From contig NZ_CP146064.1 in NCBI RefSeq assembly GCF_037013405.1, forward strand, positions 240,001 through 272,000: 32,000 nucleotides of DNA. Reading direction: 5' to 3'. Position 1 is the first letter of the stretch. Each line of letters begins with the position of its first letter. The position numbers and the translations under genes were made by a program. This DNA comes from Candidatus Nanosynbacter sp. BB002. GTDB lineage: Bacteria > Patescibacteriota > Saccharimonadia > Saccharimonadales > Saccharimonadaceae. Below the pieces are notes generated by a model that searched no databases, was not told where the DNA came from, and saw nothing but the letters and a program-made list of their open reading frames with translations. This document shows positions 3,111-31,821 of the stretch, piece by piece.

Positions 3111-4109
3111 CTACATGCTGGTAGCTATTTTGCGAATCTGTTCGCTGGAGAGTGGAGCGTGGCTGTTGATTTGGTACAAGATGCCACCATTGACCCAAGC
3201 GACATTTTCTCCTGCTGCAAAAATAGTCAGGCCATCGACGATGGTTGTAGCTGGCGCACCTGATTTTCCTGAGATGTATTCTTTGACAGCGGCTGAATCC
3301 CAGTTGCTCTTGCTCTGAGAAATTGTGTAGTTAGCAGTGCCGTCAGCGTATGCAAATTTCATACTAACCTCTCCCTGCTTGAAGGAAATTGGGCCGTTGA
3401 GCGCATAGCCATTTGGTTTGTAACCAGGATAAGTGGCGTTGATACCAGACTGCAGGGCGGCGACACGAATGGAAATGTTTGGCATGCTGAGATAGGTGAA
3501 ATAGCCACCGAGTAGCATGATGGCAAGCCCTGCAGAAGCCAGGCTGGTCCACCGCTTCAGTTTGCTTTGCTTGCGCTTGGCGCGGTGATGTTTGTCTGGT
3601 TTTGGCTCTTGAGCTTTAGCCAAGGCTTCGCTGATGGCCTCATTTTTGAGAATTGATGCTGGCTTTGGCTCGGCTTTCTGAATTGGCGCGACGGGCGCCT
3701 TGGTAATTTGTCGCTGCTTGGCGCGTTGTACAACTGGGTGCACTTCTGCCGGACGATCTATCTGAACAGGTTTTTTGAGCGCCTCTACTGCTGGTTTTTG
3801 AGCTATCTGAGGGGAGAATTTTTTCACGGCAACGTGTTGCTGTACGGCCGTATGTGGGGTCCTAACTGGACGAGTAGCGAGGGATTTTTGAGGGGGTCGT
3901 TTGATGTGTCGTCGGCTGAGGGTGGCTGATTTCTGTACTGGAACACGGTGAATAGTTGCAGTAGTTGTACCGCGTGCGGTTGATGCCTTGACGACGCGTT
4001 TGGGCTGCGTTGGCGCTACGGTTGGTGATGTTGCGACTGAGATTGGTAATGGCAGTCCTGTGACTGGGTCGTATGCCTTACCATTGACATTGATAAATTC
4101 TTGTTTCAT
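3111..4109 (-). CDS. Single-pass membrane protein with a basic/Pro-rich N-terminal region and a DUF4367-like C-terminal domain (possible anti-sigma-like)
   Basis: There is one TM segment (WTSLASAGLAIMLLGGYFTYL). The extracytoplasmic C-terminal domain ends ...GGILYQINSHAPLSSEQIRKIATSM, resembling DUF4367 ends. A Shine-Dalgarno AAGGGGA lies before the ATG at 4109. Confidence 0.55.
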   Translation of the reverse strand: MKQEFINVNGKAYDPVTGLPLPISVATSPTVAPTQPKRVVKASTARGTTTATIHRVPVQKSATLSRRHIKRPPQKSLATRPVRTPHTAVQQHVAVKKFSPQIAQKPAVEALKKPVQIDRPAEVHPVVQRAKQRQITKAPVAPIQKAEPKPASILKNEAISEALAKAQEPKPDKHHRAKRKQSKLKRWTSLASAGLAIMLLGGYFTYLSMPNISIRVAALQSGINATYPGYKPNGYALNGPISFKQGEVSMKFAYADGTANYTISQSKSNWDSAAVKEYISGKSGAPATTIVDGLTIFAAGENVAWVNGGILYQINSHAPLSSEQIRKIATSM

Positions 4110-14196: not shown

Positions 14197-15518
14197 GAAT
14201 TGGACTGTTTACTGATACCTATCGACCATCAATCAATGGCATCGTTTTTGTGGTTGAATCGCTCAAGCGAGAGCTGGAGAACCTGGGGCATGAAGTCTAT
14301 GTGTTTTGCCCTGCCAAGTCAATGAGCCCGTCCAAACAAGCCGAATTGCTCAACGAAGACTCTGACTCACGTATCATCCGTTTCCCATCAATCAAAGGTG
14401 CGTTTTTTGATGATTATGACACATCAGTGTTCTTCCCGCCGGCAGTACAGCGTCGCATCAAAGAGATGGAACTCGACATGGTGCATGTGTTTACGCCGTC
14501 GCAGATTGGTTTGGTTGGCGTGAAGGCTGCCAAAAAGAATAATATTCCGTTGGTGATTCAGCACTGTACTGACATCTATGAGTTCGTCGATCACTATCCA
14601 GCAGTGCTGCCCGGTGCCTTGGCGCTGGCGGGAATTGTCTTCCCGGTGTCGGTGAGATTGCGCGGTCATGATCTACTAGAAATCGCCAAATTATACAAGC
14701 CGCGAGCGGGCGTCACTAAGTGGAACAAAGATATCATTGAAAGCGTCATCACCATTTTGTATAGCAAAGCAGACGCGGTCATTGCCTTGTGTCGAAAGAG
14801 CTGCAAGCAACTAAAGTCCTGGCAGTACGATGATTATCAATACGAATTGGTGCTAATGCCAAATGGCGTAAATGCGCTGCCTCGTCCAACAAAAACTGAG
14901 GTAAAAGCATTTCGTGAGCAGTGGAACTTGGCAGAAGATGATGAAATTTTTGGATTTGTTGGTCGGTTGGGTGAAGAAAAGAATTTGCCGCTGCTCATCA
15001 AATCGTTTGAGCGGCACATCGCTAAGAAGCGGCCCAAGGCAAAATTATTGTTTGTTGGTGATTTTGAATACCGAAAGACGCTGGAGGAAATGGCTGCCGC
15101 GACCAAATATGCTGACAGAATTATTTTCACTGGCGCTATGCCGCGCGAAAAGCTCGGCCTGGCGTACTCGGTGCTGGACGTGTTTGCCTTTCCATCTCTG
15201 AAAGACACGCAGGGTTGGGTGCTGCATGAAGCGGCTCACGCAGGGTTGCCGATCGTGCTAGTGGACAAAGAGCTGTCAGAAGTGGTCCAAGACGGCGTGA
15301 ATGGCTTCATCGCGAATGATAATCCGACCAGCTTTGGGCGAGCGATCATTACCTTGCTAGAGGACGCCAACAAGCGTCAAGAATTTGGGGCTATCAGTAA
15401 AAAATTGGCGGCCAAATTTACTGAGAATCGCCAAGTGAAGAAGCTGGAAAAATTGTATCAAGAGCTTATCGACCAGAAAGCTGCCGACGCGTCTCACGAT
15501 CTTGATCACGACGCTTGA
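14193..15518 (+). CDS. Glycosyltransferase family 4 (diacylglycerol glycosyltransferase-like)
   Basis: The N-terminus MRIGLFTDTYRPSINGIVFVV is typical of GT4 glycolipid or mannosyl-type transferases. The C-terminal part has FVGRLGEEKN and PSLKDTQGWVLHEAAHAGLPIV. The start overlaps the upstream stop (ATGA). Confidence 0.8.
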   Translation: MRIGLFTDTYRPSINGIVFVVESLKRELENLGHEVYVFCPAKSMSPSKQAELLNEDSDSRIIRFPSIKGAFFDDYDTSVFFPPAVQRRIKEMELDMVHVFTPSQIGLVGVKAAKKNNIPLVIQHCTDIYEFVDHYPAVLPGALALAGIVFPVSVRLRGHDLLEIAKLYKPRAGVTKWNKDIIESVITILYSKADAVIALCRKSCKQLKSWQYDDYQYELVLMPNGVNALPRPTKTEVKAFREQWNLAEDDEIFGFVGRLGEEKNLPLLIKSFERHIAKKRPKAKLLFVGDFEYRKTLEEMAAATKYADRIIFTGAMPREKLGLAYSVLDVFAFPSLKDTQGWVLHEAAHAGLPIVLVDKELSEVVQDGVNGFIANDNPTSFGRAIITLLEDANKRQEFGAISKKLAAKFTENRQVKKLEKLYQELIDQKAADASHDLDHDA

Positions 15519-15942
15519 TGGTCTCGCGTTTGTCGTAACGCTTTTTACCCCGCCCGAGTGCGATGATAATCTTAATGAAGCGGCCATTGGTCAATAATTT
15601 GGTCGGGACGATGGTAAGCCCCTGTTGTTTGGCGGCAGCAAATCGATCAATTTGTTTACGGCTAGCTAGTAGCTTTCGCGCTGAGGTATCGACGCTTTTT
15701 GTGTTTGCCTGACCACGAACATTCAGTCGCAACGAAAAACTCGCGTTATTGAGCCATAGTTCATCATTTCTCAGGCTGACAAAGGCACCTTTGAGCTGGA
15801 CATGCCCGTCGCGTGCAGCTCGTACTTCTGGTCCTGTTAGCACCAGTCCGGCCACGATTTCCTCACCCAACTCATAGTCAAACCGTGCTCGACGGTTAAC
15901 GACGACGTGGGTAGCTGGCTTTTTTGCTTTGGGCTTTGGCAT
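15466..15942 (-). CDS. smpB: SsrA-binding protein
   Basis: The motifs are VVNRRARFDYELGEEIVAGLVLTGPEV, LLASRKQI and LTIVPTKL, plus a basic C-terminal tail GKKRYDKRETIKRRD. Confidence 0.93.
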   Translation of the reverse strand: MPKPKAKKPATHVVVNRRARFDYELGEEIVAGLVLTGPEVRAARDGHVQLKGAFVSLRNDELWLNNASFSLRLNVRGQANTKSVDTSARKLLASRKQIDRFAAAKQQGLTIVPTKLLTNGRFIKIIIALGRGKKRYDKRETIKRRDQDRETRRQLSGR

Positions 15943-29696: not shown

Positions 29697-30812
<1,116 letters not shown>

Positions 30813-30830
30813 CTCTGTTATTTTACCATA

Positions 30831-30872
30831 CAAAGGAGAAAACCCCTCACTCTCGCCATTGAGAATGAGGGG
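30831..30872 (-). terminator. Strong rho-independent terminator closing the noncoding locus upstream of the dus promoter
   Basis: The minus-strand RNA reads CCCCUCA-U-UCUC-AAUGGC-GAGA-G-UGAGGGG followed by UUUUCUCCUUU. The stem arms are at 30843-30849 and 30866-30872. Confidence 0.75.
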
Positions 30873-30988
30873 CGTTGGTGGGCTCAAGCGGTTCTGCTCG
30901 GAGTTGATCTCGACGGTGAGAAAAACTGCCACGAGTGAATCTCGCGAACCCGGGGAGGGAGAGATGACACTCCATTGTGCCATCTCAG

Positions 30989-31058
30989 TGGATGTGACGG
31001 GAGTCGAACCCGCGAGACGGTGGACTTCGATTGTCCTGTCTCCCTACTTGGCACACCC
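30989..31058 (-). ncRNA. tRNA-like element with an alanine-type acceptor stem but truncated D arm and non-canonical anticodon arm
   Basis: The minus strand reads GGGUGUG-CC-AAGUAGGGAGACA-GGAC-AAUCGAA-GUCC-ACCGUCUC-GCGGG-UUCGACU-CCCGU-CACAUCC-A. It has a 7-bp acceptor with G3:U70 and A73, and a canonical T arm/loop. Only about 15 nt occupy the D-arm region, the anticodon-like stem has 4 bp, and position 33 is A rather than U. Confidence 0.4.
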
Positions 31059-31260: not shown

Positions 31261-31349
31261 CGGACACAGCGGGACTCGAACCCGCAGCCTCCCGTTGCGT
31301 CGACACCGTTGTCGACGCGGGCGCTCTGCCATTTAAGAGCTATATGTCC
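31261..31349 (-). ncRNA. tRNA-shaped element with canonical acceptor, D and T arms but a 12-bp extended helix and hexaloop instead of an anticodon arm
   Basis: The minus strand reads GGACAUA-UA-GCUC-UUAAAUGGCA-GAGC-G-CCCG-C-GCGUCGAC-AACGGU-GUCGACGC-AA-CGGG-AGGCU-GCGGG-UUCGAGU-CCCGC-UGUGUCC-G. It has a 5-nt variable loop like class I tRNAs. The anticodon position holds 14 extra nt, and I could find no 7-nt loop with U33. Confidence 0.4.
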
Positions 31350-31673
31350 TGTGATTCTTTTCTGGGCTACCAGCTGGGCGAATCACCCCAGGGGCGGACA
31401 GACGCCCTTTACTGACCGTGGGGGTCAGTGGTTTCGGGGTCGCACAAACCCCGACTGTCAAACCTCTACCAGTGGAGCTTCCTGGGACGGTCGCTCCGAC
31501 CTGTGGCCGCGTTTTCTATGGCCTGCTTCTCGAGCAGGATCGCGTAGAGGCAGTTGAGAGTTTCTCGCGGCGCTTTATGTTTGCAGGCATACTCATAGTC
31601 TTCCTGCGCACGGCGTCGCTCATCGGTCTGGTTTCCAGCCAAGGGTCTCACCCCCTTTCCGCCGCAGTTGCGG

Positions 31674-31771
31674 CAAAAGAAAAAGAGCTAACCCTCTCTC
31701 GAACCACGCTTTTGTGCGAAGCATGGTCAGGATTTGACGCCATTTGCGGCGTCAAATCGAGAAGTTAGCTC
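31674..31771 (-). ncRNA. 5' three-way-junction module followed by a U-tract (riboswitch/attenuator-like, or a ~115-nt sRNA)
   Basis: In the minus-strand RNA the closing helix pairs GAGCUAAC (31764-31771) with GUUAGCUC (31685-31692). It encloses hairpin GAUUUGACGCC-GCAAAU-GGCGUCAAAUC (31731-31758) and hairpin CCAUGC...GCGUGG (31704-31726). UUUUUCUUUUG (31674-31684) follows. Confidence 0.4.
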
Positions 31772-31792: not shown

Positions 31793-31821
31793 ATCATAAC
31801 ACGAACTGTAAAAAATAGCAA
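31793..31821 (-). promoter_or_regulatory. Sigma-70-type promoter (TTGCTA-17-TATGAT) at the 5' end of the noncoding locus
   Basis: On the minus strand, TTGCTA is the complement of 31816-31821 and TATGAT is the complement of 31793-31798, with a 17-nt spacer. The promoter lies just downstream of the stop of the flanking partial CDS. Confidence 0.5.

Follow-up and report, generated by a model that had tools for sequence, protein, structure and literature searches.

An 89-nucleotide (nt) RNA element with the body of a transfer RNA (tRNA) but a long closed helix in place of the anticodon arm, here called module (a), is encoded at 31261..31349 of the window, by which is meant the whole 32,000-nt stretch of Candidatus Nanosynbacter sp. 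BB002 DNA that was analysed (contig NZ_CP146064.1, positions 240,001 to 272,000). It appears to be a tRNA mimic, or tRNA-like processing element, inside an undescribed modular RNA locus of Saccharibacteria, and with its anticodon arm replaced by a rigid hairpin of 11-14 base pairs (bp) it is unable to decode. The structure of the module and its conservation, the architecture of its family, its context and the coding status of the small open reading frame (ORF) that precedes it are matters of observation. The function favored for it, though with a confidence that stops a little short of even, is that it is read by RNase P and RNase Z and so punctuates a transcript by analogy with what mascRNA does for MALAT1. 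A search of the literature on tRNA-like RNA or transfer-messenger RNA (tmRNA) in Saccharibacteria, Patescibacteria and Nanosynbacter found no account of the locus, and a complete Nanosynbacter genome annotated with the Prokaryotic Genome Annotation Pipeline lists two non-coding RNAs only (PMC8830319). Coordinates are positions in the window and, unless another strand is given, features are read on its minus strand, a point left unstated in an earlier note on this DNA that had picked out the element from the letters alone.

Starting from its 5′ end at 31349, the RNA runs GGACAUA-UA-GCUC-UUAAAUGGCA-GAGC-G, passes into a rod, CCC-GCGUCGAC-AACGGU-GUCGACGC-AAC-GGG (31291..31321), and finishes AGGCU-GCGGG-UUCGAGU-CCCGC-UGUGUCC-G. 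The acceptor stem is of 7 bp (GGACAUA/UGUGUCC) with G1:C72, A3:U70 and a G discriminator, the D arm is GCUC/GAGC with GG in its loop, the variable loop, AGGCU, is of 5 nt and the T arm is GCGGG-UUCGAGU-CCCGC. All of these are as the earlier note described them, and it was also right that an alanine identity pair is lacking, since position 3:70 is A:U in each of the 16 aligned copies. The acceptor stem, the D arm with G18G19 and the T arm with its UUCRANY loop are what is expected of a decoding tRNA, and their columns are invariant in the 16 orthologues. Against the Rfam tRNA model, RF00005, the module scores 42.3 bits (gathering score 29; E = 6.8e-6 for the window). Its minimum free energy (MFE) fold is exactly a cloverleaf plus the rod, at -42.8 kcal/mol (z = -3.3), and none of 200 shuffled sequences is as stable.

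It is in the remaining arm that the resemblance to a working tRNA ends. The Infernal alignment places a 23-nt insertion where 9 central anticodon-arm positions should be and aligns no anticodon loop. The rod consists of 3 + 8 bp with a 3-nt bulge on the 3′ side and a hexaloop, or of 12 bp with an ACGG tetraloop if A40:U45 closes, and the MFE version has 3 bp, the 3-nt bulge and then 9 bp. The 12 bp and the hexaloop that had been proposed together therefore belong to different forms, 11 bp going with the hexaloop and 12 bp with the tetraloop; similarly, the length of 31 nt given for the segment between the flanking arms stands, while the breakdown written for it, CCCG-C-GCGUCGAC-AACGGU-GUCGACGC-AA-CGGG, sums to 33 nt with two bases counted twice. 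The observation that no excision of 14 nt restores an anticodon loop can be widened, as no contiguous deletion of any length yields a 5-bp stem and a 7-nt loop with U33 and a purine at position 37. The nearest solution, CCCGC-GUCGACA-ACGGG, has C37 and a C.A mismatch, and is what ARAGORN calls tRNA-Ser(cga). That candidate was rejected, for only 3 of the 5 pairs of an anticodon stem form, a perfect 8-bp helix is disrupted and the call varies among orthologues, being Ser-cga, Val-gac or no call depending on the genome; the inconsistency marks the ARAGORN anticodon arm of (a) as an artefact. A class-II reading also forms just 3/5 stem pairs, and with no deletion able to restore the loop both a class-II and an intron-containing tRNA are ruled out. 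The programs thus score (a) as a tRNA, yet without a recoverable intron or anticodon loop, which bears out the proposal that it is neither a normal nor an intron-containing tRNA, and instead a tRNA body that carries a long helix.

The changes that the rod has undergone are informative. Its eight loop-proximal pairs are paired in 206 of the 208 cells afforded by 26 distinct (a)-type sequences. In eight sequences the 5′ strand has gained 3 nt, in three forms, GCC, AUU (locus L193) and GUU (locus L119), and the inserted bases pair with the former AAC, AGU or AAU bulge to give a 14-position helix in which pair 10 is C:G or U:A and pair 11 is G.U, A:U or G:C. As independent 3-nt insertions pair with what was the bulge, the rod is a selected RNA helix. 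In locus L086 an outer C:G has been exchanged for A:U, with CCA/UGG replacing CCC/GGG. Such changes keep or lengthen the RNA helix and break the DNA palindrome, and so argue both against a site that acts at the DNA level and against gene decay.

A hexaloop of the type C-[A-R-Y-G-N-N]-G caps three long hairpins of the surrounding unit: the (a) rod, the hairpin after the last module and, in many strains, the central arm of the terminal element E3 (approximate loop positions 31301-31311, 30971-30976 and 30911-30916; the loops were compared by inspection). Judged by its recurrence in the sequence, the hexaloop may be a common motif for protein binding or tertiary contact. Kissing of the (a) hexaloop, ACGGU, with the E3 loop, ACCGU, was tried as an explanation; the two are complementary in the window and the idea was dropped as, by inspection, there is no covariation in strains with AACGAU.

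The conservation of (a) was followed with the downstream gene on the same strand, which encodes the dihydrouridine synthase Dus (PF01207), as a handle. This gave 80 loci, all in genomes of Candidatus Saccharibacteria / Nanosynbacter, and at least 20 of them have (a) at 86-97% identity. In the genomes that carry it the Dus proteins are 72-99% identical to that of the window, with some at only ~72%, and a metagenome scan extended the set to the 26 distinct (a)-type sequences. The conservation in related genomes that the earlier note had asked after is therefore found, across species and in metagenomes as well. Among the 16 aligned copies 98.9% of cells pair and the changes are nearly all one-sided (G:C to G.U, U:A to U.G), a result compatible with the structure and short of proof of it. 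As covariation among (a) copies alone is uninformative, the evidence is taken from the insertions and deletions just described and from the wider family. A BLAST search of the 1-kb region against phages and E. coli genomes matched nothing, and none of the viral contigs carried the module, the adjacent pseudoknot or E3.

Modules were sought upstream of dus by their T-arm and acceptor signatures, and in most relatives there are one to three tRNA-like modules per unit, placed at segment boundaries. The family comprises at least 85 distinct modules with a covarying 7-bp acceptor stem and a T arm GCGGG-UUCGANU-CCCGC, and the bodies between the two are wholly different among lineages. Some are 55-nt mini-helices, some are of 70 nt with perfect 10-bp hairpins or of 80 nt with long interrupted rods; others lack a D arm and have a 7-nt anticodon-like loop of varying 'anticodon', and there is a canonical-size cloverleaf with a C33/AAA loop in addition to the (a)-type. 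The acceptor and T stems covary strongly, pairs 4:69, 5:68, 6:67 and 7:66 each occurring as several pair types; with stems that covary and bodies that are unrelated, it is the acceptor/T-arm 'top half' that is under common selection. Pair 3:70 is A:U in 36 modules, G.U in 37 and G:C in 12, while G1:C72 is present in 54/56. Position 74 is C and position 75 a pyrimidine in 85/85, against a background C frequency of 0.26, and position 73 is a purine in 84/85. CCA is usually not encoded by the modules; the genuine tRNA-Leu in the window encodes A-CCA.

The window has a second member, module (b), at 30989..31058, a 70-nt tRNA-like element with no D arm, G3:U70, discriminator A, and an arm of 5 + 4 bp with a 7-nt loop. 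In some genomes an (a)-type module occupies its slot, from which it follows that modules are positionally interchangeable. Module (b) matches just the two ends of the Rfam tmRNA model, at 28.6 bits, below the gathering score of 47, and the loops of its orthologues read UCG, UUG, UCA, UAA, CCA or UGC, usually with U33 and A37. Locus L049 has three tandem tRNA-like elements (3255-3655, plus strand), the first scoring 65 bits as a tRNA with CCA encoded and an anticodon loop CCAAAAG (C33, 'AAA'), the second of 68 nt, and the third, of 93 nt, reaching 43 bits with the model for tRNA-Sec. Three IMG/VR viral contigs (L215, L251 and L262) also have odd tRNA-like elements, of 47, 58 and 78 nt, with full 7-bp acceptor stems and T arms and with truncated or non-canonical bodies; they lack the pseudoknot/E3 context and are unrelated to the Saccharibacteria unit.

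What (a) has kept, namely the 7-bp acceptor stem from G1:C72, the elbow nucleotides of the D-loop and T-loop, the T arm and R73-C74-Y75, can be set beside what it has lost. The part that contacts mRNA on the ribosome, and that many aminoacyl-tRNA synthetases also contact, is dispensable in the modules. The features common to all modules are those read by tRNA-maturation enzymes, and the modules stand at boundaries; it is on this footing that a processing model is proposed. The unit would be transcribed as a single precursor, RNase P would cut at G1, and the 3′ end of the upstream small-ORF mRNA would be left locked in the adjacent pseudoknot. After R73, RNase Z or a 3′ exonuclease would act, followed by the CCA-adding enzyme, yielding a tRNA-like RNA of ~89 nt, perhaps with some additional function, along with the segments downstream. 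On this view the module would serve both as punctuation and as a 3′-end-forming signal, like mascRNA or like a tRNA co-transcribed with an mRNA. There is precedent in that a 7-bp acceptor stem is a major determinant for RNase P, and the tRNA-like YrlA of M. smegmatis, whose acceptor stem is also of 7 bp, is both cut by RNase P and furnished with CCA (PMC4201824).

For how (a) probably works the closest match is mascRNA, as an analogy and not a homology. Formation of the MALAT1 3′ end involves RNase P cleavage of mascRNA beside an A-rich structured end, after which mascRNA is cut by RNase Z and receives CCA (PMC8457004). Like mascRNA and the menRNA of MEN-beta, (a) is a cloverleaf-like mimic without a functional anticodon loop, downstream of an A-rich structured tract. 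The differences are several: mascRNA is eukaryotic, and its model, RF01684, gives (a) 17 bits (gathering score 42.5; E = 2.6), so there is no homology; the upstream structure is an H-type pseudoknot here and a U-rich triple helix at MALAT1; the upstream RNA here is a small-protein mRNA; and (a) has a full D arm and an elongated arm where mascRNA has a reduced arm, with the processing of (a) being predicted. Transcripts in which a protein-coding RNA is followed by a tRNA-shaped element are otherwise represented by bacterial mRNA-tRNA co-transcripts, such as E. coli secG-leuU in which the two are separated by RNase P, and by the 3′ tRNA-like structures of plant viruses, which have pseudoknot domains upstream; in such transcripts factors that process or bind tRNAs come to act on the 3′ part of an mRNA. 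However, the bacterial co-transcripts carry genuine decoding tRNAs and in the viruses it is the 3′ end of an RNA genome that is aminoacylated, whereas the elements here are dedicated, non-decoding, built with exchangeable bodies and located on a bacterial chromosome.

Several considerations weigh against the processing model. Co-transcription, cleavage by RNase P and RNase Z, CCA addition and stabilization of the mRNA end are all inferred steps. The second stem of the pseudoknot lies 1 nt from G1 in the window and could hinder RNase P rather than help it. The nucleotide preceding the acceptor stem, N-1, is A in 69/85 modules, and E. coli RNase P prefers U there. Within the 16 (a) copies covariation is no better than in shuffles, so that the check for rod covariation which the earlier note had called for is uninformative in that form, though wobble changes and compensated insertions and deletions do keep the helix. 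The conservation of rod and hexaloop in (a)-type modules also exceeds the needs of a pure processing signal, even if the copies are closely related, and the presence of the same hexaloop type on two other hairpins of the unit hints at a specific partner beyond punctuation.

The last two of these lead to a different view, possible though unlikely, in which the released tRNA-like RNA is itself what matters: a stable mimic that offers its rod and C-AACGRU-G hexaloop for binding. A protein that binds tRNAs or hairpins might be sequestered or recruited in this way, or the RNA might carry an aminoacyl group for non-ribosomal use, and such roles are compatible with processing. The retention of the rod and hexaloop in all 26 (a)-type copies fits this, as do the recurrence of the hexaloop on the hairpin after the last module and on the E3 central arm, the keeping of the elbow nucleotides and the alanine identity pair, G3:U70, of many sister modules; functional tRNA mimics are already known in YrlA and mascRNA. 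But over the family the bodies are swapped for unrelated hairpins, which leaves no universal partner that binds the body, and with 3:70 being A:U, G.U or G:C no single aminoacylation identity is shared. Nor is a gene for a partner protein linked to the unit, whose neighbors are a helicase gene and dus.

A rather improbable alternative is that (a) stays uncut, as a structural domain in the 3′ region of the small-ORF mRNA that stabilizes the RNA or enhances translation, and would be a bacterial counterpart of the pseudoknot domain plus tRNA-like structure of plant viruses. In its favor, the ORF is a genuine gene, a mere 1-4 nt separate the pseudoknot from the acceptor stem, and conserved hairpins follow one another without a break from the ORF stop to the terminator, folding strongly (z = -4.8 over the final 154 nt). 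Yet RNase P and RNase Z recognize just such a combination of 7-bp acceptor stem, T arm and R73-C74-Y75, and escape from them would need active protection; modules vary freely in number and type among strains, which suits detachable cassettes more than it does a fixed tertiary architecture.

Decidedly doubtful, though attractive in its reach, is the notion that those modules with G3:U70 are processed at the 3′ end, given CCA and aminoacylated, and act with SmpB as mini-tmRNAs consisting of the tRNA-like domain (TLD) only, 'TLD-only', or as non-ribosomal aminoacyl carriers, with (a) as a protein-binding mimic beside them. A small-protein mRNA would then be joined through the pseudoknot to exchangeable tRNA-shaped domains that are more than mere cutting signals.

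Very unlikely is a tmRNA-related locus in the proper sense, with modules that are tRNA-like domains working with SmpB in ribosome rescue, or with the whole being a highly divergent ssrA. The earlier note had been reminded of tmRNA and of YrlA; the reading as a tRNA mimic survives, but the resemblance is one of analogy only, as (a) lacks the defining features of both. SmpB is encoded in the window (15466-15942; PF01668, E = 7.6e-40), neither ARAGORN nor Rfam at its gathering threshold finds a canonical tmRNA in the 32 kb, and the unit has the order ORF, then pseudoknot and hairpins, then tRNA-like end. The SmpB gene shows that the genome has a tmRNA in some place, but does not make this locus that tmRNA. 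As in tmRNA (RF00023), a tRNA-like top half is combined with a long helix at the position of the anticodon arm, and G3:U70, together with matches to both ends of the tmRNA model, is found in module (b) and in several of its sisters. Against this, (a) has A3:U70, a genuine D arm and a closed 31-nt rod, and many units are without any G3:U70 module. The acceptor stems close locally, leaving no mRNA-like domain inside the tRNA-like domain, and the ORF lies 5′ of the whole module with its own Shine-Dalgarno (SD) sequence and start codon; the ORFs belong to unrelated small-protein families and have no end resembling a degradation tag. The Rfam tmRNA model does not match (a) and gives its sister modules 24.8-36.8 bits, below 47; the matches weighed in judging this proposal lie at 28.6-36.8. 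A real ssrA is probably elsewhere in the genome, outside the 32-kb window.

YrlA is a bacterial non-coding RNA with a tRNA-like domain recognized by tRNA enzymes, and in that it is like (a). The YrlA gene adjoins that of Ro60 (rsr), and the RNA carries the motif GNCGAAN0-1G; where a tRNA has its anticodon arm, YrlA pairs its 5′ and 3′ ends into the stem that binds Ro, and a loop seals off the stem that corresponds to the acceptor (Chen et al. 2014, PMC4201824). In (a) the arrangement is inverted, the acceptor stem being open and the rod closed; there is no GNCGAA motif in its 89 nt and no TROVE/Ro60 domain in the 25 window ORFs scanned.

Scarcely tenable is a decaying or interrupted tRNA gene, either a pseudogene made by a palindromic insertion or a tRNA with an unrecognized short intron. 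The acceptor stem, the D arm with GG, the AGGYU variable loop and the T arm are shared with canonical tRNAs, the Rfam tRNA score is above the gathering threshold, ARAGORN reports a tRNA and L049 has a canonical-size cloverleaf in the same slot; but (a) has no 5-bp stem with a 7-nt loop, no recoverable intron, no stable anticodon and no encoded CCA, and is inside a transcription unit that is not one of tRNAs. No excision restores the loop and, by inspection of the fold, there is a single bulge and hence no bulge-helix-bulge intron motif. It is 86-97% conserved across species and found in metagenomes too, and the compensated insertions and deletions that lengthen the rod are the opposite of decay. 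Equally hard to sustain is a DNA-level site, in which the 8-N6-8 inverted repeat GCGTCGAC-N6-GTCGACGC, a perfect 8-bp repeat with two SalI-type palindromes near a strain-variable cassette, would be an operator or a recombination (att) site, the 3′ halves of tRNA and tmRNA genes being common integration sites: A to G and C to U changes break the DNA palindrome and keep RNA pairing through G.U, the insertions pair with the bulge in the RNA reading only, no integrase gene is adjacent, and the absence of module, pseudoknot and E3 from viral contigs was the ground for rejecting an att site or a phage origin.

The unit to which the modules belong is of ~0.9 kb and lies between a gene for a UvrD/AddA-like helicase and dus, in a spacer that ranges from 625 to 2029 nt, unusually long for genomes of ~0.7 Mb. 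Its order is promoter, 5′ hairpin, small ORF, three hairpins, pseudoknot, one to three modules, E3 and terminator. When the window and seven diverged loci were searched against Rfam with permissive cut-offs, the only matches were tRNA, tmRNA-end and tRNA-Sec-like ones, all on modules, and the unit seems, from the sequences compared, to be specific to Saccharibacteria. The promoter-like sequence, TTGCTA-17-TATGAT with an extended TG (31793..31821), is conserved in all aligned loci. Just after this consensus-like promoter is a three-way-junction hairpin, GAGCUAAC...GUUAGCUC followed by the U-tract UUUUUCUUUU (31675..31771), with conserved loops GCAAAU and CGCACAAA and with arms that covary between strains (UUUGACGCC/GGCGUCAAA as against UGAGAUAUC/GAUAUCAAA). 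Diverged lineages have a simpler two-helix version, and the structure could be a terminator, an attenuator or a separate RNA of ~100 nt.

An SD-like GGGGGUGA (31648-31655) is 7 nt before the TTG start of the small ORF, of 58 amino acids (31466..31642), which sits in a strain-variable cassette between conserved RNA flanks. Its differences are distributed 346/295/660 over the codon positions, synonymous changes being about as frequent as nonsynonymous ones, and its C-terminus, ENAATGRSDRPRKLHW, is invariant; the window-type ORF evolves as coding sequence. In L003, L008, L023, L028, L047, L055 and L073 the same slot is taken by unrelated proteins of 31-58 amino acids, among them CxxC zinc ribbons, a DnaJ-like CxxCxGxG type and a GFFxDRSAAAYRRAAEAVQ family, with others besides. 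Pfam searches with six of the small ORFs gave no family at threshold, only sub-threshold likeness to zinc ribbons and DnaJ-CXXCXGXG.

Three hairpins follow, GUCGGGGU..ACCCCGA, CUGACC..GGUCAG and GGGCGUCUGUCCGCCC (31392..31455), conserved in close and diverged loci. Then, at 31351..31391, come the pseudoknot and A-rich tract, seen in 70 distinct contexts: a hairpin CUGGG-[GUGAUUCG]-CCCAG, a hairpin CUGGUAGCCCAG and AAAA-GAAUCAC. The pseudoknot is of the H-type, GUGAUUC pairing with GAAUCAC over an A-rich linker, and its 7-bp second stem ends 1 nt before G1 of (a). Across contexts the core is a loop (N)GAUUC paired with downstream GAAUC(N), and the flanking pair covaries, being U:A in ~29 contexts and C:G in 6. 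In L011 and L044 both strands have changed, to UGAUC/GAUCA, and GGUUC variants pair by wobble. Together with the AAAAGAAUC tract, the pseudoknot ends 1-4 nt before G1 of whichever module is in the first slot (~70 contexts).

Between (a) and (b) is a spacer of about 200 nt (31260-31059), and after the last module comes the hairpin GAGAUGGCAC-[AAUGGA]-GUGUCAUCUC (30961..30986), whose hexaloop is of the type of the (a) rod. The terminal element E3, of 73 nt (30879..30951), was recognized in at least 63 of 81 sequences, in 50 distinct forms, and no Rfam family matched it. It has a closing stem GGGYUCG/UGAGYCC, a lineage-variable central hairpin and an invariant CUCCGAGCAGAACCGCU. Compensatory changes occur in both closing stem and central arm, and leave an interrupted-rod and a cloverleaf fold indistinguishable. 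Encoding of CCA at the E3 end was considered and dropped, as the sequence is not conserved there and the variants are CCA, CGA, CCC and CCG. The unit closes with a 13-bp hairpin resembling an intrinsic terminator, followed by UUUUCUCCUUU (30842..30873), which is found in all loci with compensatory variants; folding is strong (z = -4.8) over the last 154 nt.

The dus start codon, at 30812, has its own extended -10, the two falling within 30812-30835, and is only ~8 nt downstream of this extended -10-like TGGTAAAAT, which suggests, on sequence grounds, that the dus mRNA is leaderless or has a very short leader. The listed dus ORF reaches upstream to 30983, over E3 and the terminator, and this extension is almost certainly untranslated. 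A dus leader, or an autoregulatory tRNA mimic for dus, was ruled out by the strong terminator and separate dus promoter that intervene. Another protein-coding gene is present between the unit terminator and dus in L011, L014, L024, L034, L037, L044 and L051, with the insert at about -1000 to -40 relative to dus and E3 staying with the RNA unit, so that unit and dus are separable.

To our knowledge bacterial tRNA mimics that are not tRNAs are rare, with tmRNA, YrlA and a few leaders known, and each of those known has revealed a distinct biology. Here there is a whole family of non-decoding modules, with a shared 'top half' and freely exchanged bodies, in a 0.6-2 kb non-coding/small-ORF locus that is outside Rfam, and it is found in ultra-small episymbionts whose ~0.7-Mb genomes have little dispensable DNA. 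There is a practical consequence as well: ARAGORN and Infernal label the modules tRNA-Ser, Val, Arg, Trp, Phe or SeC, and tRNA inventories of the candidate phyla radiation (CPR) are inflated and distorted by them. The locus can be tested directly in cultivable Nanosynbacter-host co-cultures. If the modules are punctuation for RNase P and RNase Z, with an mRNA 3′ end capped by a pseudoknot, the MALAT1-mascRNA mechanism would have an equivalent in bacteria; charging of the modules, or their binding by SmpB or EF-Tu, would amount to a new tRNA-derived function; and should the tRNA-shaped domains joined to the small-protein mRNA be more than cutting signals, in the doubtful way outlined above, the locus would parallel the tRNA-like 3′ ends of viruses, and the CPR would have a new class of functional RNA derived from tRNA.

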